From the IMG/VR virus record IMGVR_UViG_3300035492_000236: a stretch of DNA of 64,000 bases; one strand, 5' to 3'. Positions 9,027 through 36,613 of this stretch are shown in pieces (position 1 is the stretch's first letter; the number at the start of each line of letters is the position of its first letter). Source of the stretch: a virus (lineage: Duplodnaviria; Caudoviricetes). Below the pieces are notes generated by a model, which had not been told where the DNA came from, did not search any database, and was given only the letters and a program-made list of their open reading frames with translations. The translations under genes were made by a program, and so were the position numbers.

Positions 9027-10218
9027 CATTACCTTCAACTAGGCTCGCTAGGCCTAGCCCGTACATCTGGCCAGAATGTACTGCCCACCTCGCGATGGGA
9101 ATGAGGACAAATCACTATCTCAACCCACAAGTCACTGCACATGACTTTATATGTAAAGGTTGAGATACACTTACCGTTTCGACTACGCTCGTAGCCTACT
9201 CTACTCAGTTCACCTGACGGTGCCTTTCGATGTCCGTGGGGCATTTATACTCAAGCTATTTTCCATTCCGAGAATCTTGGGTTTTTCGACCTAACGCGAT
9301 GTCGAACCGTACCTCGACATATTCCTAACGCATCGGCGGCCCGCTGCATGGAATCATACGCAACGCCATTTATAACCACGCCAATTTCAGTCCCGTTTAG
9401 TCTTCCTAGGTTGGCTTCGCGCAAGCGTCTCTTGGTTTCGTCGCTATGAGTTCTACCGTAGAAGTGGTTGCGCTCACCTCGATAAAGATGTGCATTGTCG
9501 CGCATGCGTTTGCACATCTCCTCGTATTGGCGTTGTGGCATTGGCTTGCCTTTGTTTGGTGGGGTCGTTCCCAATATTCGCTGTCGCTGTCGCTCCTTAA
9601 CCTCGTCTGTATGTGTCCTACCATACATTGGGTTTTTGCATCCGCTAATGTCCCAGCGCTTTGCCTTCTGCTCTGGTGTCATCGCGGCGCATGTCTCAGA
9701 CAGCGTCTTGCTTCTACGTGAAATTACGTCTTCTCGGTTTGGGTTGTATGTCAAAGTGTCTTTAAAGCTATCGCCGGCAGCGACATTATAAAGCTTCCCA
9801 GTCGCTATAATGCGATTGACAAGAGCAGACTCTAATTGGAACGCCTCTTCATAGGTATCAAACGACTTTAGCGGCTTTATTCTAAAGATCCCACCGTTAT
9901 CGAAGTCTGCTTGTAAAGATTTACTATGATGTCGTCCGCCCATTAGCATTCCAATATGATCAGCCTTTCGCCTCTTGAAATTCCTGGTGCTTCCGTAATA
10001 CCTCTTTCCAGTACCAACCTCTAAAATGACATACACGTATGGTTTATCTTTAATCATACCCAAATCCAAATCATTAACAACACACTGATTAGATGGATTC
10101 GTTATGAATAACAGCTCGAGTAACTTAGCAACGGATTGACATGCCGGTCTTGCCGACAGCTTCCCCGTTTTAGGTAAGGTTTTCGACGTACGTCACCGTA
10201 CGAAGGCGCTCTCTCTTA
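9027..10218 (-). mobile_element. Group I intron (IA2/td-like, 1192 nt) in thyA
   Basis: 5' splice after CGU and terminal omega-G (...GUAAUG/UCU); P1 GCGU:GCGC, P10 UCU:AGA, P2 CGUACG-GUGA-CGUACG, P3 CUUACC:GGUAAG, P4 AACGG:CCGUU, P7 GGAC:GUCC, P9 with GCGA loop; splicing gives in-frame R-S-N-D. Confidence 0.93.
9251..10057 (-). CDS. Intron-encoded GIY-YIG homing endonuclease (I-TevI/I-BmoI-like)
   Basis: YVYVILEVGTGKRYYGSTRNFKRRKADH catalytic motif, two NUMOD3-like repeats (NPMYGRTHTDEVK; NHFYGRTHSDETK) and a C-terminal HTH; lies in the P6 loop. Confidence 0.92.
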   Translation of the reverse strand: MIKDKPYVYVILEVGTGKRYYGSTRNFKRRKADHIGMLMGGRHHSKSLQADFDNGGIFRIKPLKSFDTYEEAFQLESALVNRIIATGKLYNVAAGDSFKDTLTYNPNREDVISRRSKTLSETCAAMTPEQKAKRWDISGCKNPMYGRTHTDEVKERQRQRILGTTPPNKGKPMPQRQYEEMCKRMRDNAHLYRGERNHFYGRTHSDETKRRLREANLGRLNGTEIGVVINGVAYDSMQRAADALGICRGTVRHRVRSKNPRFSEWKIA

Positions 10219-11130
10219 ACGCAGACTAACATGCAGGTTCAGTCGGTACTTGGGCGCGTACTTCAACACGATGGCTTCCCGCTCTTCCTGGGAGATGCAT
10301 CCGCCCGTGACTTTCATCTCTGCCGCTATCACATACTTGGAGAAATCCGTCCACAACCTATGTTTGTGGTTCGCCAGCCGTTCTTCAGCCGACATCTCTT
10401 CCACTTTACACACGAAGTTCCAATGGCAGGGCGCCAGCGCCATCTTACCACGTGCCACGTTCTCCTGCGGCGACAGGCGCTCATCCGGCAGCAAGGCCGG
10501 GAACCAGGTAGAGACCACATGCCGACGAGAAGTGGGGTTCATCCGTAGACCATTCACCAGCTTTTGGATCTGGTCGGTGGTGGTACCGTCCCCGTTCGGG
10601 AAGGCGCGCCACATCTTGCCATACAGCGGACCCAGGTCACCGATGTCGCACGTCTTCACCCACTCTTCGGTTGTCCAGTTATGGTGTTTCAGGTAGAAGG
10701 TCGCCAGCTCCTGGTCAGAGGGGATGTACATGGGGTCTTTCCCAGCATGCTCTTTCCAGGTATCGTGGATTACCTTGATGGCATCCAGACCATACACGCC
10801 GTAGATGTCACCGATGCGGTCCATCGTGTCCGCAAACGTCAGCTTACGGGTGATGTAGCATTGCTCGTCGTTTTCAATCGCCCACTTGTTCCAGAACGTC
10901 ACCCCGTGGTCATTCAAGAACTTGACGTTGGTGTTGCCGGACAACATCCACAGCAGCTCCACCACAGCCCCCTTGAAATACCCCTGTTTCGTGGTCGGAG
11001 CGGGGAAGCCTTGGCGCAAGTCAAAGCGTACGCTTTCCCCAAAGGTGGAGACGGTATCGACACCAGTGCGGTTGTGGGCACGTACGCCGTTAGTAAGGAT
11101 GTTGTTGGCAACGTTGATGTACTGTTCCAT
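10219..11130 (-). CDS. thyA: Thymidylate synthase, exon 1
   Basis: NRTGVDT, FDLRQGFPAPTTK, ELLWMLSG, LGPLYG-x-MWR, PTSRRHVV and catalytic LAPCH; ends at LR, where the intron supplies an in-frame TAA. Confidence 0.93.
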
Positions 11131-11201: not shown

Positions 11202-12437
11202 TTAAGCAGCTTGCTTCAGTTGCTGATTATGGTATTTCATCAGCAGGTTTTTCGCGGTGATGTGACACGCCTTAGCGCGAAACACCACGTCGTGGATATC
11301 TTTAGCGGGCATGTCGACAAACACCACCTGTTCGACATCCATCTCAGGGTACAGCCGCTCGAAGTAGCGCTGCACTGTGACGGCATTAATGTAGGGCAGT
11401 TCGACGATGTGGTCGACACGACCAGGGCGTAGCAGAGCACTGTCCAAACGTTCCAGGTAGTTGGTGGTCATGAATACTACGTTACCACTCAGCGTTTGAA
11501 TGCCGTCCAGCGCGTTCAGTATTCCACTCAAGGTCAGGAAGTGGGTACCGTCTTTATCCGCGGTAAGGGACTTGCGGTCGTGGGTGGAGGTGGCAGCGTC
11601 AACATCTTCCAGTACGATGAAGGCGTTCTTAGGCGCTGTCAGCATGCTTTTAAGCAACGTTGCGTCTGACATATTACTCAGGTTCAGGATACACACCGAC
11701 ATGTTGTAGGTACCTGCCAGAGCGCGTATCATCGACGTTTTGCCGGTTCCTGGTTCGCCATGCAGCGCAATCGTCAGTTTGTGCGACAGGCCCAGTCGAT
11801 TAAAGGTGTCCGCCCCGTTAACGAACGCGTCCATTTCTGATTTGAAGAACTGGTAGGTCTCTGGGTTCAAGGCGATGTCATCCAGCGTGTTTTTACGGAT
11901 GTGGCTTTGCAAACGCCATTCTTCTTTGAAATCGTAGACGGCGATTTCGTCGGAATGGTCATGGTTACGCAAGTCCTCCACCAACGAGTCGAACAAACTG
12001 CGCGACCGGCCCAGCTTGATGACGGTGATTTGTTCCTTCAGCAAATCCCCGCCGGAGCTATCCAGGGTTTCCTTACGTACTAGTAACAACCTGCCGCGGT
12101 ACACGGTCAGGTGATTGCCGTACCCAATACCTAATGAAATCTTGAGCTTACCATTGTCGTCCCAGCGCGACAACACCGAGAACGTACGGGTGAAACCCGC
12201 GGCGGTGCCACTATGCATCAGCTCGTTCAACTGCAAGAACATAATGCGGTCCATGTACGTGGTGTTGTTCACGGTGAGGGAAGTCATCAGTTGTTTCTTG
12301 ATGAGTTCGAACAACTTCACTGGGAGGGTTTTCAACATGTACGTGGCGCTAACCGTTAGCGTGGTGACAATACCGGCAGTGGCGAATTGGTTGCCGCCTG
12401 TCACCACATCTAACCATTCAAACAGAGAAGCGAGCAT
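11202..12437 (-). CDS. BCS1-like AAA+ ATPase with N-terminal membrane segment
   Basis: Walker A GEPGTGKT, Walker B LEDVD, LSGILNALDG and SRH TTNYLERLDSALLRPGRVD; start MLASLF at 12437 has an AAGGA SD. Confidence 0.85.
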   Translation of the reverse strand: MLASLFEWLDVVTGGNQFATAGIVTTLTVSATYMLKTLPVKLFELIKKQLMTSLTVNNTTYMDRIMFLQLNELMHSGTAAGFTRTFSVLSRWDDNGKLKISLGIGYGNHLTVYRGRLLLVRKETLDSSGGDLLKEQITVIKLGRSRSLFDSLVEDLRNHDHSDEIAVYDFKEEWRLQSHIRKNTLDDIALNPETYQFFKSEMDAFVNGADTFNRLGLSHKLTIALHGEPGTGKTSMIRALAGTYNMSVCILNLSNMSDATLLKSMLTAPKNAFIVLEDVDAATSTHDRKSLTADKDGTHFLTLSGILNALDGIQTLSGNVVFMTTNYLERLDSALLRPGRVDHIVELPYINAVTVQRYFERLYPEMDVEQVVFVDMPAKDIHDVVFRAKACHITAKNLLMKYHNQQLKQAA

Positions 12438-12540: not shown

Positions 12541-13854
12541 TTAGCTGTAAATGTAAACCTTGGTCGTGTTGCCACCCAACCACAGCAGTCGAGTACGTAC
12601 TTCATCAAACACGAACACGCCGCTGAAAACCGACGCTGGCAGTGGACTCCGCGCTGTCCAAACGTCTGTGACCGCGTCGTAGGTCAGCAATTGGTCGGTT
12701 GCACCGCCAGCCATGTAGAGTTTAGACCCTATGGCGCACATGTAATGGTTGATGTTGGGTTTCGGACCAATGCCATCGTCGAGCCAGGTTTCAGTGGCAG
12801 TATCGAAGCGAAGGAACTGGTCGTGTGCGGCAACGTCATAACCACCGTAAATGTACAATATCTGATCAATAGCAGCCATCGCAGGGCCCTGCGATGCCTT
12901 ACCGTGACCGCCATGATCAGTCACTGTCCCTTTCACGAAGTCATAACTGTAGAGTTTGTTCTGACGCGCACCATTATTAATCCAACCACCATAAAACCAC
13001 AATTTATTGCCGACTACGGCCGCGCCAGGCTGAACCAACGCCACCGGTAACGTCTTCACAACGGACCACACTCCTGTGGTAGGACTGTACTTAACCAGGC
13101 TGTTGTTGTCTGCGCCGAATCGCCCCCCTAAGAGGTACCAGTCACCGTTATACGCAACGGAGGCAAGGTGCAGACCTAACGATGGGGTGTTGGCAATAGC
13201 TTCCCACGTTTCACTGACCAAGTGGAAGCGATAACTCGAATTACCGCGACACATGTACACGTAGTCGCCAATCACCGCCCCGGTTGAACCTACACCTTGA
13301 ATGGGACTTACGACTACAGATTGGCTGGTGATCCAGACGTCGTCAAACGCGATTTCCTGCTGCATGTTAAAACCACTCAGCTCGCGGTCCTGCACACGGG
13401 TTTCGAGTGACGCTTCGACTACCAGGGGGCTGTAACCGATGAATGCCGGGTTGGCTGCCTTGGCATAAAAGACGTCTTGACCTTCAATCTGCTTGGTGCC
13501 GAAATGGCCGGTCTCGGTGTTGATGCCATATTTCCGCTGTACTTCTTGCAACACTAAGGCTTCGTCAAATGCCCCATCAGCCTTGATGTCAACTTCACGG
13601 AGTTTGACTTCAACGACACTAAACAGCGTGGCAATGTCGATCCGATTATAAAAGATGGTGGCGCCACTTACATCCGTCCCTTCAGGCAGGGGGTTGATGT
13701 CGATGTTTTGTGCGGTATTGTACGCTCCTTCTAGCGGCGTAGGTTGCCCTGTCAGGATTAAGTGATTAATATCATACGCTTCGGTGTTAAAGTGGTTAAA
13801 CAACTCCTTCACCAACTGCGCCTGTGGTTTGATCATGTCTACAACATAACTCAT
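12541..13854 (-). CDS. Virion adaptor domain plus Kelch beta-propeller
   Basis: N-terminal NRIDIATLFSVVEVKLREVDIKADG...ELSGF domain, then about six Kelch repeats (LYIYGGY, LWFYGGW, WYLLGGR, YD-x-x-x-x-x-W). Confidence 0.8.
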   Translation of the reverse strand: MSYVVDMIKPQAQLVKELFNHFNTEAYDINHLILTGQPTPLEGAYNTAQNIDINPLPEGTDVSGATIFYNRIDIATLFSVVEVKLREVDIKADGAFDEALVLQEVQRKYGINTETGHFGTKQIEGQDVFYAKAANPAFIGYSPLVVEASLETRVQDRELSGFNMQQEIAFDDVWITSQSVVVSPIQGVGSTGAVIGDYVYMCRGNSSYRFHLVSETWEAIANTPSLGLHLASVAYNGDWYLLGGRFGADNNSLVKYSPTTGVWSVVKTLPVALVQPGAAVVGNKLWFYGGWINNGARQNKLYSYDFVKGTVTDHGGHGKASQGPAMAAIDQILYIYGGYDVAAHDQFLRFDTATETWLDDGIGPKPNINHYMCAIGSKLYMAGGATDQLLTYDAVTDVWTARSPLPASVFSGVFVFDEVRTRLLWLGGNTTKVYIYS

Positions 13855-14004
13855 TTGGAACCTCTACAACTCGTCAGTTTGTTAAGAATAGGTACGCGTA
13901 CCCAAACTATTGAAAAGGATACCGCATGTTCATCTAATCACAATGCCGGCCAGGACCGCCGCAACGCAAAAAAAAAGTGAGTGGACCTTAGCCCACTCAG
14001 CATA

Positions 14005-14112
14005 CTATCTACTGCCCACCCGTCCAAGCATTCTACACTTACCATGTAGCACCAGCGCCGCGCCAATCAAACCCACATTCAAGGCAACGTACAAACCAAC
14101 TGCATAAATCAC
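14005..14112 (-). CDS. Unannotated 35-aa single-pass membrane peptide
   Basis: AAAGGAGG SD 9 nt before GTG; MIYAVGLYVALNVGLIGAALVLHGKCRMLGRVGSR; TATG upstream and a hairpin plus T8 downstream. Confidence 0.65.
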   Translation of the reverse strand: MIYAVGLYVALNVGLIGAALVLHGKCRMLGRVGSR

Positions 14113-14157
14113 TTAACACTTCCTCCTTTCTATTACATAATATTTGCCCTCACTGTC

Positions 14158-14181
14158 AAAAAAAGAGGGCCGAAGCCCTCT
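14158..14181 (-). terminator. Intrinsic terminator AGAGGGC-TTCG-GCCCTCT-T7
   Basis: GC stem with cUUCGg loop and T-tract; identical copies at about 26448-26471 and 45611-45634. Confidence 0.9.
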
Positions 14182-14196
14182 GTGAGATTCAAACTC

Positions 14197-15210
14197 TCAG
14201 AGCAACATTGTCGGCAGTTCAACTGTCGCCGTAGACTGCGTTGCAGTATGACTACTGCGATCTTTAGTGAGGTTAGACAGCAACTTACCATCCGTTAACT
14301 GGATGTATAACTCAACATCCACCTCCTGAGTTAGGTTGGGATGACCACGGTATTTACTCCGGTCGAATGTTACGAATTCTAGCGGGTGACTAACCACCAA
14401 CGTGCCGTCGTAGATAGCGATATTTCTCAGCGTCCGTATTGCCTGCTGGATATCGTGTTCTCCCGAAACCTTGGATAGGCAATTGCAATAGAAAACGGTG
14501 GTGCAATCTCCATCGTAAAGTGCTTCCCAGGTTTCTTTGAGATCACTGATCGGAGCGTCAGCATCGCTAAGTTTGATTACTTTCAGAAATATTCCTGTCT
14601 GCATACTGAAGTCATCTATGAACGCGGTGCGTGCATCGTCGTGTTCAAACTCGGGCAATGGACGCTCAGTGACTTGGAGGAACATGTCCGCGTAATAAGA
14701 TTTCACGTCTTCATCGGTGGCGTCGTAAGGCGCCACCCACACCAGCAACCGCGGGCCGCCGTCCACTGCGGCCACAATAATGTCACGTGCAGCCAGGCTG
14801 AGTGCAGCACGGTCTCCAAGTTCCGCATCTTCACAGCCGATCAACGTACACATGGGTGTGTTGTCGCGAGCCAGGTTAAGTTCGGCATATCCACTCCAAT
14901 CCTTAACGGTCAACCGTTTCAGTCGCGTCTCGAACACTTGCAAGGCTAATTGCTGCAACGTGGTGCGATCATCGACTCTTCGGTTAATGTACTCATTAGG
15001 GCGAGCATCCACCCAGGCCGTGGGATCTTCGGTCAGGTAAGTGTGGGTTGTCTCAGTAAGCTTCTCAGCCAACTCAATCGTTGCGTCCTGGCGTTCAATG
15101 ATATCAAGCAGTGCGCTTGCCTCGGCATCAGTAGGCGGATGAAGTTTGAACTGGTTGCGCAACGTACCCATGGGGTTTCGGATAATGGCTTGGGCATATT
15201 CTTTTAACAT
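14197..15210 (-). CDS. Degenerate DnaB-like (RecA-fold) paralog
   Basis: Four collinear blocks align by eye with the helicase at 53363-54877; Walker A and B appear altered. Confidence 0.6.
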   Translation of the reverse strand: MLKEYAQAIIRNPMGTLRNQFKLHPPTDAEASALLDIIERQDATIELAEKLTETTHTYLTEDPTAWVDARPNEYINRRVDDRTTLQQLALQVFETRLKRLTVKDWSGYAELNLARDNTPMCTLIGCEDAELGDRAALSLAARDIIVAAVDGGPRLLVWVAPYDATDEDVKSYYADMFLQVTERPLPEFEHDDARTAFIDDFSMQTGIFLKVIKLSDADAPISDLKETWEALYDGDCTTVFYCNCLSKVSGEHDIQQAIRTLRNIAIYDGTLVVSHPLEFVTFDRSKYRGHPNLTQEVDVELYIQLTDGKLLSNLTKDRSSHTATQSTATVELPTMLL

Positions 15211-15227
15211 GAGGATCTCCAGATAAA

Positions 15228-15716
15228 TTATTGAGTCAGTTCTTTTAACATGTCGCGCTGAAAGGCTTGTAAGTCAACCGTCCAGTGTACTAACATTTCA
15301 AGTGGTGCGCTGTCAATTACTTGATACAATTCAGATATGTCGTGCGCGTTGCAGTTATATAAAGCTGCAAGATACCGGACATGGTCTTTGAGTTTCTTGT
15401 ACGCGGTACCAAAGTCCTTAAGGTGACTGTGGTCGTAACAATCACTCGACGGTACAGACAGACCACCGAACGTGAACCAGAGGTTGCTCGGGTCCCACAC
15501 CAACCCTAACGGCACCCGCACGCAGTTTGGTCGATTTGGTATATCCGCGTACTGCGGCGAAATCAAGAATATGGAACTGGTGTCTTTCATATACCGGCGA
15601 AGGAAGGGCGTAGGTAGCACCCACTCCGTGGTAGGGACGTATACTTTGCCAGCGTATACATCGTACTCATCGCTGACAACTTTACAGCCAGTGTGGTTAT
15701 AGATAGAAATAGTCAT
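15228..15716 (-). CDS. Hypothetical protein
   Basis: 162-aa ORF with TATCTTGGAG SD. Confidence 0.65.
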   Translation of the reverse strand: MTISIYNHTGCKVVSDEYDVYAGKVYVPTTEWVLPTPFLRRYMKDTSSIFLISPQYADIPNRPNCVRVPLGLVWDPSNLWFTFGGLSVPSSDCYDHSHLKDFGTAYKKLKDHVRYLAALYNCNAHDISELYQVIDSAPLEMLVHWTVDLQAFQRDMLKELTQ

Positions 15717-15774
15717 CGCAGAACTCCAAGATAAAAAATAAGAAGGGTGGGTAGCGAACTACCCACCGTGATTG

Positions 15775-19268: not shown

Positions 19269-21032
19269 ATGAACTACGTTGTGGAATTACATAAACCGTC
19301 CACGACTTTGGTTCGCGAACTTTTCAACTTTCACAATGGCTCAGACTTTACGGCGGAACAACTGTACGCAGATGGTCCACCACAGGTGCTGAGTGACGGA
19401 CTGTACAACACCAGTCAACGCATGATCGTGAATGACCCGGAACTGGGACCGATCTTGCCATGGGCAACGATCAAGTACAACCGGATCGATATCGCTACGT
19501 TATTTAGCGTGGTGGAGATCAAGTTACGTGAGGTGGACATCAAGGCTGATGGCACCTACGATCATGCCTTGGTGTTGGGTGAAATTGCCCGCAAGTACGG
19601 TCTGGATAACAGTGAAGGCAAGTTCGTTATCAAAGACGTGAATGGGCAAGAGTCACTGGTAGCGACGGCTGATAACCCGGCATTCGTTGGACACTCCCCC
19701 CTGGTGGTGGAGTTGTCGCTGGATAGTCGAATCAGTCTGAAGGTACTGAATGGCTTCTATGCCTTGTTGGGACCATTTGGTCCGGGCGGTACGGACATCA
19801 CCTTCGGGGATGCCGAGCTGGGGTTCATTAACACTGTCCCCAGTAATGAATTGGTGACCGGTACGCAGTTAGCCCATTTGGTGGGATTGACTGTCGGTAC
19901 ACCAATCTACGAGAATAACGACGTTAACTGGATCAAGTACACCTATAAAGGAAAGATCTGCTACGTTGCGCAAAAGCCCATTCGCCACTCTGTCAGTTAC
20001 AATGACCTGCTGGCAGTCGGTGTGGCTGGAGCTACTCCTAAGATCGTAGTGATCGGGGAAGATGTATTTCGTGTACGACTGATGCATGGTGTCGGGGACT
20101 CTGAATTGGGGTATAGCAGCCCAGGTACTGATAATCCAGCGACGCATGGCTCTGAATGGAACCAAGTGATGTATCGATTGAGTGCTGACACTGTCAGCAC
20201 TGCCTCGGAGCAGCCGTATGATCCTTGGCTTACCTTGAGCAATGGTGAATTGGGTACTGGTTACTGGTCACACATTGAAGGTTCGGTCGTTGGACATCCC
20301 TACCCAGCACTTTATCGAGGGTATGGGAGTATTGCTGGAAACTCCAGCAATACTCTAGCGTACAAGGCCACTACAGTAGCCTGGCGACCCGTCCTCGAGA
20401 TCGTCGACAAGTCGCTGATCTGGATGTCAGCTGAGATCACTCGAATTCGGTCTACGTTCCTGTATAAGCCTGGTGCTCTGACCACTCAATCGGAAGACCC
20501 CATCATCAACACCCTGATGGCTGCGTTTGATAACTACACCTACGTGGATGCGTTATTGAACCCGTACGGGACTGACAGTGTAGACCCTGAGCTGATGGTA
20601 GTGCCCTGCATACCAGAAGGTGAGTTCTGTGACAGCATCATCACGCCGACAGTCTTTGACTTGTCTAACGATGAGCCTACGCATGATCTCTACGTCATTG
20701 CGCCAGTTGCTGTAACGTACACTTACTACCAGCCCAGCATTGATCTGACCGTGTCTGAATCGGTGCCGTACATTCCTGGTGTCATCAGCTTGACTGAAGC
20801 CGACATCATCACACCTAGTACTTTTACTGGCACAGAAGTGTATGATCTGGATGCCATTTCACGCCCCTACAATCCGCTGATCAGTAGCTGGTTCTTCCTC
20901 CCAGTCGAGCTGGAGCTGTCGGCTGATGTAGAAGGCGAAATCACTCAAGTGAGTCAGCTGCTGTACGCCACCAGCGACTTCCTGCAACACCCCACTGAAC
21001 CTACTTACGTTTCTAATGAGGATACACCATGA
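19269..21032 (+). CDS. Virion adaptor plus lectin-like (WRPVLE) domain plus acidic P/T-rich tail; putative tail fibre or appendage
   Basis: Same N-terminal adaptor as the Kelch genes; central domain matches the second domain of 23005-24702; TATG promoter upstream. Confidence 0.75.
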   Translation: MNYVVELHKPSTTLVRELFNFHNGSDFTAEQLYADGPPQVLSDGLYNTSQRMIVNDPELGPILPWATIKYNRIDIATLFSVVEIKLREVDIKADGTYDHALVLGEIARKYGLDNSEGKFVIKDVNGQESLVATADNPAFVGHSPLVVELSLDSRISLKVLNGFYALLGPFGPGGTDITFGDAELGFINTVPSNELVTGTQLAHLVGLTVGTPIYENNDVNWIKYTYKGKICYVAQKPIRHSVSYNDLLAVGVAGATPKIVVIGEDVFRVRLMHGVGDSELGYSSPGTDNPATHGSEWNQVMYRLSADTVSTASEQPYDPWLTLSNGELGTGYWSHIEGSVVGHPYPALYRGYGSIAGNSSNTLAYKATTVAWRPVLEIVDKSLIWMSAEITRIRSTFLYKPGALTTQSEDPIINTLMAAFDNYTYVDALLNPYGTDSVDPELMVVPCIPEGEFCDSIITPTVFDLSNDEPTHDLYVIAPVAVTYTYYQPSIDLTVSESVPYIPGVISLTEADIITPSTFTGTEVYDLDAISRPYNPLISSWFFLPVELELSADVEGEITQVSQLLYATSDFLQHPTEPTYVSNEDTP

Positions 21033-35314: not shown

Positions 35315-36613
35315 TTAACCGTAAATTACGATGTCGCTGGTTTTATAGCCAGGCATGAATATTACTTTGTTTGTAACTGCCGCTATCCCATGTTGACTCC
35401 TAGTAGGTACCGGTCCGGTCAGCGTTGACCATTCACCTGTTATAGTGTTATACTTTTCGAAATTTGCGCTATTCGAGCTACTTATATACACGTTATTTCC
35501 ATGTGTTGTTACTGCGGCATATTGCCGTTTAACAAGTCCTCCTGGAATGTCCGTTAACTCGCCAGTAGTTAAGTCCAATTTTGAAAAGCCATCATGGTAA
35601 ACCAAGTACCAATCTTTTCCTATGGTTTTACCGCCAAAGTAATAACCGAGATCTCGCATCCCTCCAAAGGCCAACTCCCAGCTACCACTGACTGTGTCAA
35701 ATGCTGCAACTTGCGTCCCGAAGTAATAATAAACTTTCTTATTGTGGTACGCAATATTCGACGATACGCCAGATGCGAATTGTCCGGGCAACGACGGAAG
35801 CGCGACCCATACCCTTGAGGATAACGAATACCTTATAAATTGTCTTGCCGTCTGTCCCGCCCCCATGACGTACAGATATTCCCCATCTGTGCACATTGAA
35901 TGGTTTAGCGAAATCAGGGGCGACCCCAAGGATGTCCATGTGTTTGTCGAATAGTCGTATCTAAAAAAGGCGCTATTGGGCGTTGATGGGGACGCTCGCC
36001 GCCCACCGTGCATAAATACGACATCGCCCACGGCCACAGAAGCATATGCAAACCTATCATCTGCGTATGTTGGGTTGTTTATTTTAACATAGACGTCGTC
36101 TATAACGACCTCAGTCGTCAACTCAAATCCGTTCAGCTCACGATAGCCGATTCGACTGTCCAATGACAATTCAATCACGAGCGGACTGTATCCTACAAAA
36201 GCGGGGTTATTTACCTTCGCGAAGAACACGTCATGCCCTTCGATTTGTTTGACGCCAAACATCCCACTCTCAGTATTGATACCGTACTTCCTCGCCACCT
36301 CCTGAAGTACCAGCACCTCATCAAAGCTACCGTCTGCCTTAATATCGACTTCCCTGAGTTTGACCTCGACCACACTAAACAGCGTCGCCAAGTCAATTCG
36401 GTTAAAGTGGATTGACGCATACGGCACGTCTGCAGTTTCAGGGTGTCCCACCAACGTCACATCGACAACCGTGTTATATGGTTCCAATGGCGAAGGCTTA
36501 GGTTCCGACCCGACGGTCAGTTCAACTTCACTGTAGTTAGTGTCATTGAAATGGTTAAAGAGTTCACGCATCAGTGTACTAGGATGTTTATTCAACTCTA
36601 CAACATACGACAT
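35315..36613 (-). CDS. Virion adaptor plus Kelch beta-propeller (second copy)
   Basis: MSYVVELNK start (36613) with AAGGAG SD; adaptor highly similar to 12541-13854; Kelch repeats VFMHGG, YDYSTNTW. Confidence 0.8.
   Translation of the reverse strand: MSYVVELNKHPSTLMRELFNHFNDTNYSEVELTVGSEPKPSPLEPYNTVVDVTLVGHPETADVPYASIHFNRIDLATLFSVVEVKLREVDIKADGSFDEVLVLQEVARKYGINTESGMFGVKQIEGHDVFFAKVNNPAFVGYSPLVIELSLDSRIGYRELNGFELTTEVVIDDVYVKINNPTYADDRFAYASVAVGDVVFMHGGRRASPSTPNSAFFRYDYSTNTWTSLGSPLISLNHSMCTDGEYLYVMGAGQTARQFIRYSLSSRVWVALPSLPGQFASGVSSNIAYHNKKVYYYFGTQVAAFDTVSGSWELAFGGMRDLGYYFGGKTIGKDWYLVYHDGFSKLDLTTGELTDIPGGLVKRQYAAVTTHGNNVYISSSNSANFEKYNTITGEWSTLTGPVPTRSQHGIAAVTNKVIFMPGYKTSDIVIYG

Follow-up and report, generated by a model that had tools for sequence, protein, structure and literature searches.

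Nucleus-forming jumbo phages carry a divergent DnaB helicase as one of their core genes, and in chimalliviruses this helicase acts inside the phage nucleus (PMC10299810). The helicases of this family (divDNAB, PF20307) were judged catalytically active despite a modified motif (PMC7824862), and for chimalliviruses a primase, a helicase loader and a canonical clamp have yet to be identified (PMC13648687, PMC7824862). Here we analysed a stretch of 64,000 nucleotides from a tailed virus (IMG/VR record IMGVR_UViG_3300035492_000236; hereafter the window), which encodes, besides a divDNAB helicase of its own (P0002), a protein of 337 amino acids (P0001) that a sequence-only reading had proposed to be a hidden, catalytically dead second DnaB. 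Our results suggest that P0001 probably combines a new N-terminal domain with a copy of the helicase ATPase core that has decayed and lost catalysis, and is thus a pseudo-ATPase. Elsewhere, pseudo-ATPases with a RecA fold are known to regulate active relatives: in the yeast Shu complex, Csm2-Psy3 are Rad51 paralogs that have lost the Walker motifs and regulate their active relative. A mixed RecA-type ring is found in the F1-ATPase, in which the non-hydrolysing alpha subunit lies beside the catalytic beta subunit and adds an interface residue to the site of its neighbour. Our literature search found no description of a catalytically inactive DnaB-like paralog in phages.

The identity of the phage helicase, on which the comparison depends, was borne out by profile searches, since P0002 matches a 'divergent DnaB-like ATPase' in both PF20307 (divDNAB, E 4.4e-125) and phrog_3213 (E 1.4e-162). 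Walker A, Walker B and H3 are the motifs at which the profile of its family matches Geobacillus DnaB (2r6a), and the P-loop of this family displays the unusual form 'PALPHNAKT' (P-A-L-P-H-N-x-K-T). P0002 is matched by 290 jumbo-phage records, among which the Vibrio phages pVa-21 and pVp-JHP1101 are the closest (65% identity), and the right half of the window forms a phiKZ-like core block with the major head protein (phrog_3231, E 3e-208), a polymerase (phrog_2943) and P0002 itself. The source is an uncultured phiKZ-like (chimallivirus-type) jumbo phage. Note that one homolog of P0002 in a JGI record (P0061) is labelled in its source as 'CRISPR/Cas system CSM-associated protein Csm2 small subunit', which looks like a mis-annotation. 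The genes of P0001 and of the helicase lie 38.2 kb apart, in agreement with the ~38 kb given previously, and the 337-codon open reading frame (ORF) was found where the sequence-only reading had placed it, on the minus strand.

When compared with the helicase of its own phage alone, P0001 displays a similarity that appears marginal. BLASTP aligns residues 221–321 of P0001 with residues 327–452 of P0002 (24% identity over 127 amino acids, E 0.003), the Smith-Waterman score of 55 is reached by 4 of 1000 shuffled sequences (36.1 ± 5.0), and P0002 is the top match of P0001 among the 599 ORFs of the window, yet with an E-value of 0.37. Similarity to the divDNAB family is significant, if barely detectable. 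P0001 matches best a distant member of the family (P0082), with 26% identity over 191 amino acids between P0001 173–336 and its residues 282–471 (pairwise E 2e-6, and E 1.8e-4 by BLASTP within a set of 84 helicases). Over these 84 helicases, the maximal Smith-Waterman score was 85, against 52.8 ± 5.3 after shuffling (z ~6, none of 150 shuffles reaching it), and the median score was also raised (43 against 35.7 ± 1.6). About 30 helicases align to P0001 in one register, and in a mixed set of 683 sequences (the 599 ORFs and the 84 helicases) the ten best non-self matches of P0001 were all helicases. In addition, hhalign draws a path from P0001 104–334 to P0002 202–469 (E 0.011), and an ungapped hhalign core of 45 columns (P0001 284–328 on P0002 415–459) sets E296 on E427, conserved in at least 90% of the helicases, and D298 and E300 on the invariant D429 and E431. 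Three of the four blocks that had been paired by eye with the helicase, namely GIFLKV...ISDLKETWEALYDGDCTTVFYCNCL (block 2), DIQQAIRTLRNI...LVVSHPL (block 3) and KYRGHPNLTQEVDVELYIQL... (block 4), were recovered in order by both BLASTP and hhalign.

The predicted structure points in the same direction. The ESM Atlas holds a model of the exact P0001 protein (pTM 0.63, pLDDT 0.61), the first structural match of which is a divDNAB cluster (TM 0.55, residues 100–337). Among the ten structural neighbours of the model, nine are RecA-type ATPase clusters (divDNAB and eight DnaB_C, KaiC-type or RadA clusters) and one carries no family name. A KaiC-type cluster of 234 amino acids and the unnamed cluster, of 234 amino acids as well, reach TM values of 0.68–0.69 when normalised on the target. 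By language-model features, P0001 resembles short phage ATPases of DnaB_C, AAA_25 and KaiC type (Atlas clusters of 257–349 amino acids, mostly from tailed phages) at 0.87–0.91, and they are also of similar size. The one true relative of P0001 that we found (P0086, described below) has DnaB_C, AAA_25 and divDNAB clusters as its own neighbours at 0.90–0.91. The short ATPases, unlike P0001, have domains detectable by Pfam (PF03796, PF13481 and PF06745), and these domains normally come with intact Walker motifs. Altogether, residues ~104–337 of P0001 are likely to form a RecA-type core with the divDNAB helicases as its nearest relatives.

Several observations weigh against this kinship. P0001 was rightly called hidden, since Pfam (even at E ≤ 10, with the full length or the C-terminal part), PHROGs, NCBIfam and PADLOC gave no match, and a hidden Markov model built from 46 divDNAB helicases scored it at E 1.7 only, rank 4 among the 599 ORFs. 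The hhalign probabilities were low (19%, 1.8% and 3.9%), the E-value of 0.011 was slightly better than those of reversed and wrong-domain controls (0.067–0.38), and P0086 alone shows no BLAST similarity to helicases. Only one structure could be used, an ESMFold model built from a single sequence with moderate confidence, and it cannot be counted as independent of the search by language-model features; AlphaFold2 on the two-sequence alignment gave unusable models (pLDDT 35.5 for the full length and 33.4 for the C-terminal part). Furthermore, a global hhalign of P0001 gave no meaningful alignment, and PDB sequence searches with P0001 and with the family profile returned noise only. Such negative profile searches, hhalign probabilities that do not exceed 19%, the lack of sequence similarity between P0086 and helicases, and TM values for divDNAB (0.55), classical DnaB_C (0.53) and KaiC-type (0.50) clusters that are too close to discriminate would all be expected if the resemblance came from chance or convergence, P0001 being either an unrelated alpha/beta protein or a member of the RecA superfamily that does not derive from the helicase (e.g., a KaiC/RadA/Sak4-like recombination mediator). 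We consider this explanation unlikely, because it must also account for the shuffle test, for tens of helicases aligned in one consistent register, for a mixed database whose top is filled by helicases alone, for the DnaB_C-type neighbours that P0001 and P0086 each obtain independently, and for an E-x-D-x-E-L-Y strand that falls on residues invariant or at least 90% conserved in the helicases.

The sequence-only reading had also described the putative second DnaB as catalytically dead, and this part stood for P0001 itself, which lacks a P-loop motif of the form G/A-K-[ST], an acidic residue in Walker B and the segment with the sensor Gln. Within residues 105–172, where the P-loop must fall, P0001 and P0086 share no Lys position, and thus the loss of Walker A does not depend on the register chosen for the P-loop. 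Indeed, three candidate registers put G/D, R or V-K-S at the position of the Lys. The stretch PRLLVWVAPYDATDEDVKS, proposed as the P-loop in the first of the four blocks, was returned by no aligner and more likely corresponds to the strand that follows the P-loop, since hhalign sets P0001 153–163 on P0002 257–266, a strand with the invariant E267 in 'FENE' that we take to be the counterpart of DnaB H1a. The same path sets W105 on the near-invariant W203 and residues 120–134 on the P-loop strand and loop. Ungapped segment scoring gave similar scores for P0001 150–172 in registers 255 and 217, and singled out none of the three candidate P-loop registers. The alignment with P0082 anchors Y173 on the Tyr equivalent to P0002 Y278; from the P-loop Lys (K232) to this Tyr the distance is 46 residues, whereas the candidate K170 of P0001 ('VKS' at 169–171) comes only 3 residues before Y173. 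As for Walker B, the replacement of DY by NC was upheld, as hhalign sets N243-C244 on the invariant D350-Y351 within a stretch (236–246, CTTVFYCNCLS) that contains no Asp or Glu. The loop of 10 residues after Walker B is missing from P0001 in the BLASTP alignment, and hhalign shows a deletion of the 14-residue helicase segment 'PHQLSPKAKELKSI', which contains the invariant H3 sensor Gln (Q392, 'HQLS'); BLAST sets P276 of P0001 opposite this Gln. Because the residues for NTP binding and hydrolysis are gone and the loops after Walker B and near H3 are deleted, P0001 would not be a translocating helicase.

Other results fit less well with a uniformly dead family. P0086 has A-K-R ('LAKR') where P0001 has G-D-R, and C-E-D ('LYCED') where P0001 has C-N-C, so that the loss of catalytic-type residues is more evident for P0001 itself than for the family taken together, and nucleotide binding in the P0001/P0086 family may persist. 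One could therefore suppose that the family consists of nucleotide-binding enzymes or switches with a non-canonical site, P0001 being a variant rather than a dead member, all the more as P0001 holds the 'VKS' at 169–171 and divDNAB helicases with their unusual 'PALPHNAKT' P-loop were still judged active (PMC7824862). However, no such residue is common to P0001 and P0086, the two proteins differ at both candidate positions (G-D-R versus A-K-R, and N-C versus E-D), and the sensor Gln segment is absent from P0001, which makes this explanation very improbable. We therefore return to a decayed, non-catalytic core as the preferred reading of P0001, for which an ATPase family is recognisable as a relative at the limit of detection, the catalytic residues appear lost and the ORF is intact in diverged genomes, i.e., the features that define the pseudo-ATPase class.

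The phyletic survey suggested earlier yielded one protein. A phmmer search of 1.84 billion cluster representatives identified P0086 (322 amino acids, E 7.6e-41, 31–33% identity over the full length), from a second metagenomic phage, and beyond it no relative of P0001 was found among ~15 billion proteins. The other phmmer match (P0087) was rejected as a tandem-repeat artefact made of many copies of a weak match at 21% identity. No new relatives came from word-indexed searches with the P0001 protein and with the alignment, pattern scans for the family in viral and metagenome contigs gave no match, and neither did tblastn of P0001 against 50,697 phage genomes. P0086 is encoded on a metagenomic contig of 5.9 kb (L004) with the same gene order as the P0001 locus: a 269-amino-acid gene, dihydrofolate reductase (DHFR), genes of 154, 207 and 135 amino acids, P0086 and a DUF7941-type gene. 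Neighbouring pairs of orthologs are 40–71% identical, and P0001/P0086 is the most diverged pair (31%), with synonymous sites saturated at this distance. This divergence is uneven, with 42% identity over residues 1–125 and 25% over residues 126–337; the start is conserved (MLKEY and MEKEF), and the most conserved stretch (residues 101–125, 52% identity) comprises a predicted helix followed by RLTVxDWS. The intact and collinear ORF at 31–33% identity, together with a Shine-Dalgarno (SD) sequence and a terminator of its own, argues for a real and functional gene, the N-terminal part of which is the most constrained. Conversely, since P0001 is known from two phages only, it cannot be a general replication factor of chimalliviruses.

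The divDNAB helicase remains the best sequence and predicted-structure neighbour of P0001 ~104–337, with the same order of elements, a 'GW' element, RecA-core strands and helices, and an H4-like E-x-D-x-E-L-Y strand followed by a hairpin. P0001 differs from it in lacking a profile-level match, in length (~70 residues fewer, with gaps that follow Walker B and fall at H3 and the C-terminus), in the absence of the P-loop Lys-Thr, the Walker B Asp-Tyr and 'HQLS', in a G-K-x-R that is unmatched in the optimal register, and in its distribution (two phages, versus a core gene for the helicase). In addition, the N-terminal regions are unrelated, as had been proposed: no similarity between those of P0001 and P0002 was found by hhalign (E 0.38), so no helicase-type N-terminal domain was recognised, and residues 1–118 gave no fold match and no feature match.

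Our favoured scenario is thus a lineage-restricted accessory protein, in which an N-terminal helical region of ~100 residues, found only in this two-member family, would be followed by a RecA-type core of ~235 residues. This core would most likely derive from a helicase duplicate, since no relatives closer than the divergent DnaB helicases of these phages were detected. The decayed core may serve as a scaffold for binding or oligomerisation, the specific function would reside in the better-conserved N-terminal region, and the partner of the scaffold could be P0001 itself, the phage helicase or something else. The DnaB linker holds neighbouring subunits together, and hhalign aligns the conserved stretch 101–125 with the helicase 'KTGWK' element after the inter-subunit linker helix; this alignment would fit with retained subunit contacts, either of P0001 with itself or with the helicase. 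Csm2-Psy3 offers an analogy only, as a RecA-type core without NTPase motifs that has been kept as a binding module, although it is eukaryotic and related to recombination.

A more specific proposal, made in the sequence-only reading, is that the pseudo-helicase enters DnaB-type hexamers (its own, a competitor's or the host's), where it supplies a basic finger in trans without ATP and so tunes or poisons unwinding. The helicase-derived core would agree with this, as would the segment before the core, which is the most conserved one and is set by hhalign on the element after the linker helix, and the basic pair on the last hairpin (K316-x-R318, K-x-K in P0086). The F1 alpha subunit provides a precedent for such a mixed RecA-type ring, yet alpha binds nucleotide and is obligate and universally conserved, whereas P0001 is rare and accessory. 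The finger itself was not supported as described: a retained K-x-R requires a shift of 4 residues, while both BLAST alignments and the hhalign core put R318 on R449 (at least 90% conserved) and H321 on H452. In both BLAST alignments, S320 and T322 face the invariant K451 and R453 of the trans-acting finger (G450-K451-x-R453), which K316 and R318 thus do not reach in the optimal alignments. P0086 reads K-F-K at this place, so that what is conserved on the last hairpin is a basic pair. Moreover, P0001 occurs in two phages only, in a variable accessory region, as the fastest-diverging gene of its block (31% versus 40–71%), and the chimallivirus helicase works in the phage nucleus (PMC10299810). 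We regard this mixed-hexamer proposal as distinctly unlikely. A further variant, which we hold to be quite doubtful, is that P0001 acts as a phage-encoded decoy, devoid of ATP binding and of the DNA-binding loops but with its ring surfaces kept. Such a decoy would either insert itself into DnaB-type hexamers formed by the host or by a co-infecting relative, or cap the helicase of its own phage; in this nucleus-forming jumbo phage it would thereby time replication or serve as a weapon in phage competition.

Table 1. Genes and sequence elements of the P0001 locus, and the phage helicase gene, with their positions in the window
Feature	Position	Strand	Basis
Gene for P0001 (337 amino acids), stop codon included	14197..15210	-	ORF list and translation
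N-terminal helical region (residues 1-103), best-conserved part of the P0001/P0086 family	14902..15210	-	Identity to P0086
Likely degenerate RecA/DnaB-C-like core (residues 104-337)	14200..14901	-	ESM Atlas model, hhalign, BLASTP
Strongest helicase-like segment (residues 284-328): H4-like E-x-D-x-E-L-Y strand and next hairpin	14227..14361	-	hhalign
GGAG Shine-Dalgarno, 6 nt 5' of the P0001 ATG	15217..15220	-	Sequence reading
Intrinsic terminator (GC-rich hairpin, then T run) directly 3' of the P0001 stop	14164..14181	-	Sequence and terminator scan
Gene of 162 amino acids 5' of P0001, no assigned function; 17 nt between them	15228..15716	-	ORF list
Replicative helicase P0002 (504 amino acids), divergent DnaB; proposed parent or partner of P0001	53363..54877	+	PF20307, phrog_3213

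The P0001 gene belongs to the variable, accessory portion of the genome, where its neighbours are genes of no assigned function and where DHFR, the split thyA, a Nudix gene and a BCS1-like AAA gene lie close by. Its GC and GC3 match the window norm, as is typical of the phage. It is probably co-transcribed with the 162-amino-acid gene (Table 1), which has no counterpart at the P0086 locus; L004 has instead a 112-amino-acid gene upstream, and genes of 61 and 132 amino acids downstream. A terminator-like hairpin was detected by the terminator scan at 15746–15767, between the 135- and 162-amino-acid genes. In view of these differences from L004 and of this hairpin, the block around P0001 is an indel hotspot, and the genes of 162 and 337 amino acids may form a unit of their own. 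Directly 3' of the P0001 terminator, a short ORF (13967–14140, minus strand) comes with a AAAGGAGG SD and its own terminator (13978–13999).

The exact P0001 protein is present on several metagenomic contigs, the longest of which has 385,734 bp. DNA of the window was found in tar-pit metagenome runs, with no RNA run among those listed, and contigs from sequencing runs were identical to the window, with no population variation. An identical contig of 270 bp from within the P0001 gene (window 14873–15142) was seen in one hydrocarbon metagenome run from 2013 and two aquatic metagenome runs from 2015, and was all that these three runs, with a word share of 0.23, contained; because of it, either the phage or a contaminating read set occurs beyond the tar-pit samples.

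Other genes of the region also deserve mention. The thymidylate synthase gene is split (window 9251–11130; L001 10466–12866), with ThyA Pfam matches on two separate ORFs and, between them, a GIY-YIG/NUMOD3 homing-endonuclease ORF, a pattern of intron or intein-like insertion. The 411-amino-acid AAA ATPase (11202–12437, minus strand) has a weak Pfam match to a BCS1_N-like N-terminal region and matches phrog_7485 (E 5e-95), and in tblastn it matched 272 phage records, with Shewanella phage KASIA at the top (40%). A DUF7941-type N-terminal module occurs in at least three genes (12541–13854, minus strand; 19269–19508, plus strand; 36374–36613, minus strand), with 42–62% identity to fragments of L004; in the copy of 437 amino acids the module is followed by a Kelch beta-propeller, and this copy matches PHROGs whose annotation is virion structural protein.

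Given that P0001 is known from two uncultured phages only and that its homology lies at the limit of detection, the weight of these observations is limited, and for now P0001 is best regarded as an example of how, in the variable part of a jumbo phage genome, the duplicate of a core enzyme becomes a pseudoenzyme by decay. A paralog that stems from the helicase and has lost catalysis would nevertheless be a natural probe of the subunit interfaces of the helicase, in phages whose replication is still poorly understood. If P0001 binds the helicase, it would be the first example of a phage that tunes or sabotages a replicative helicase by means of a decoy subunit.

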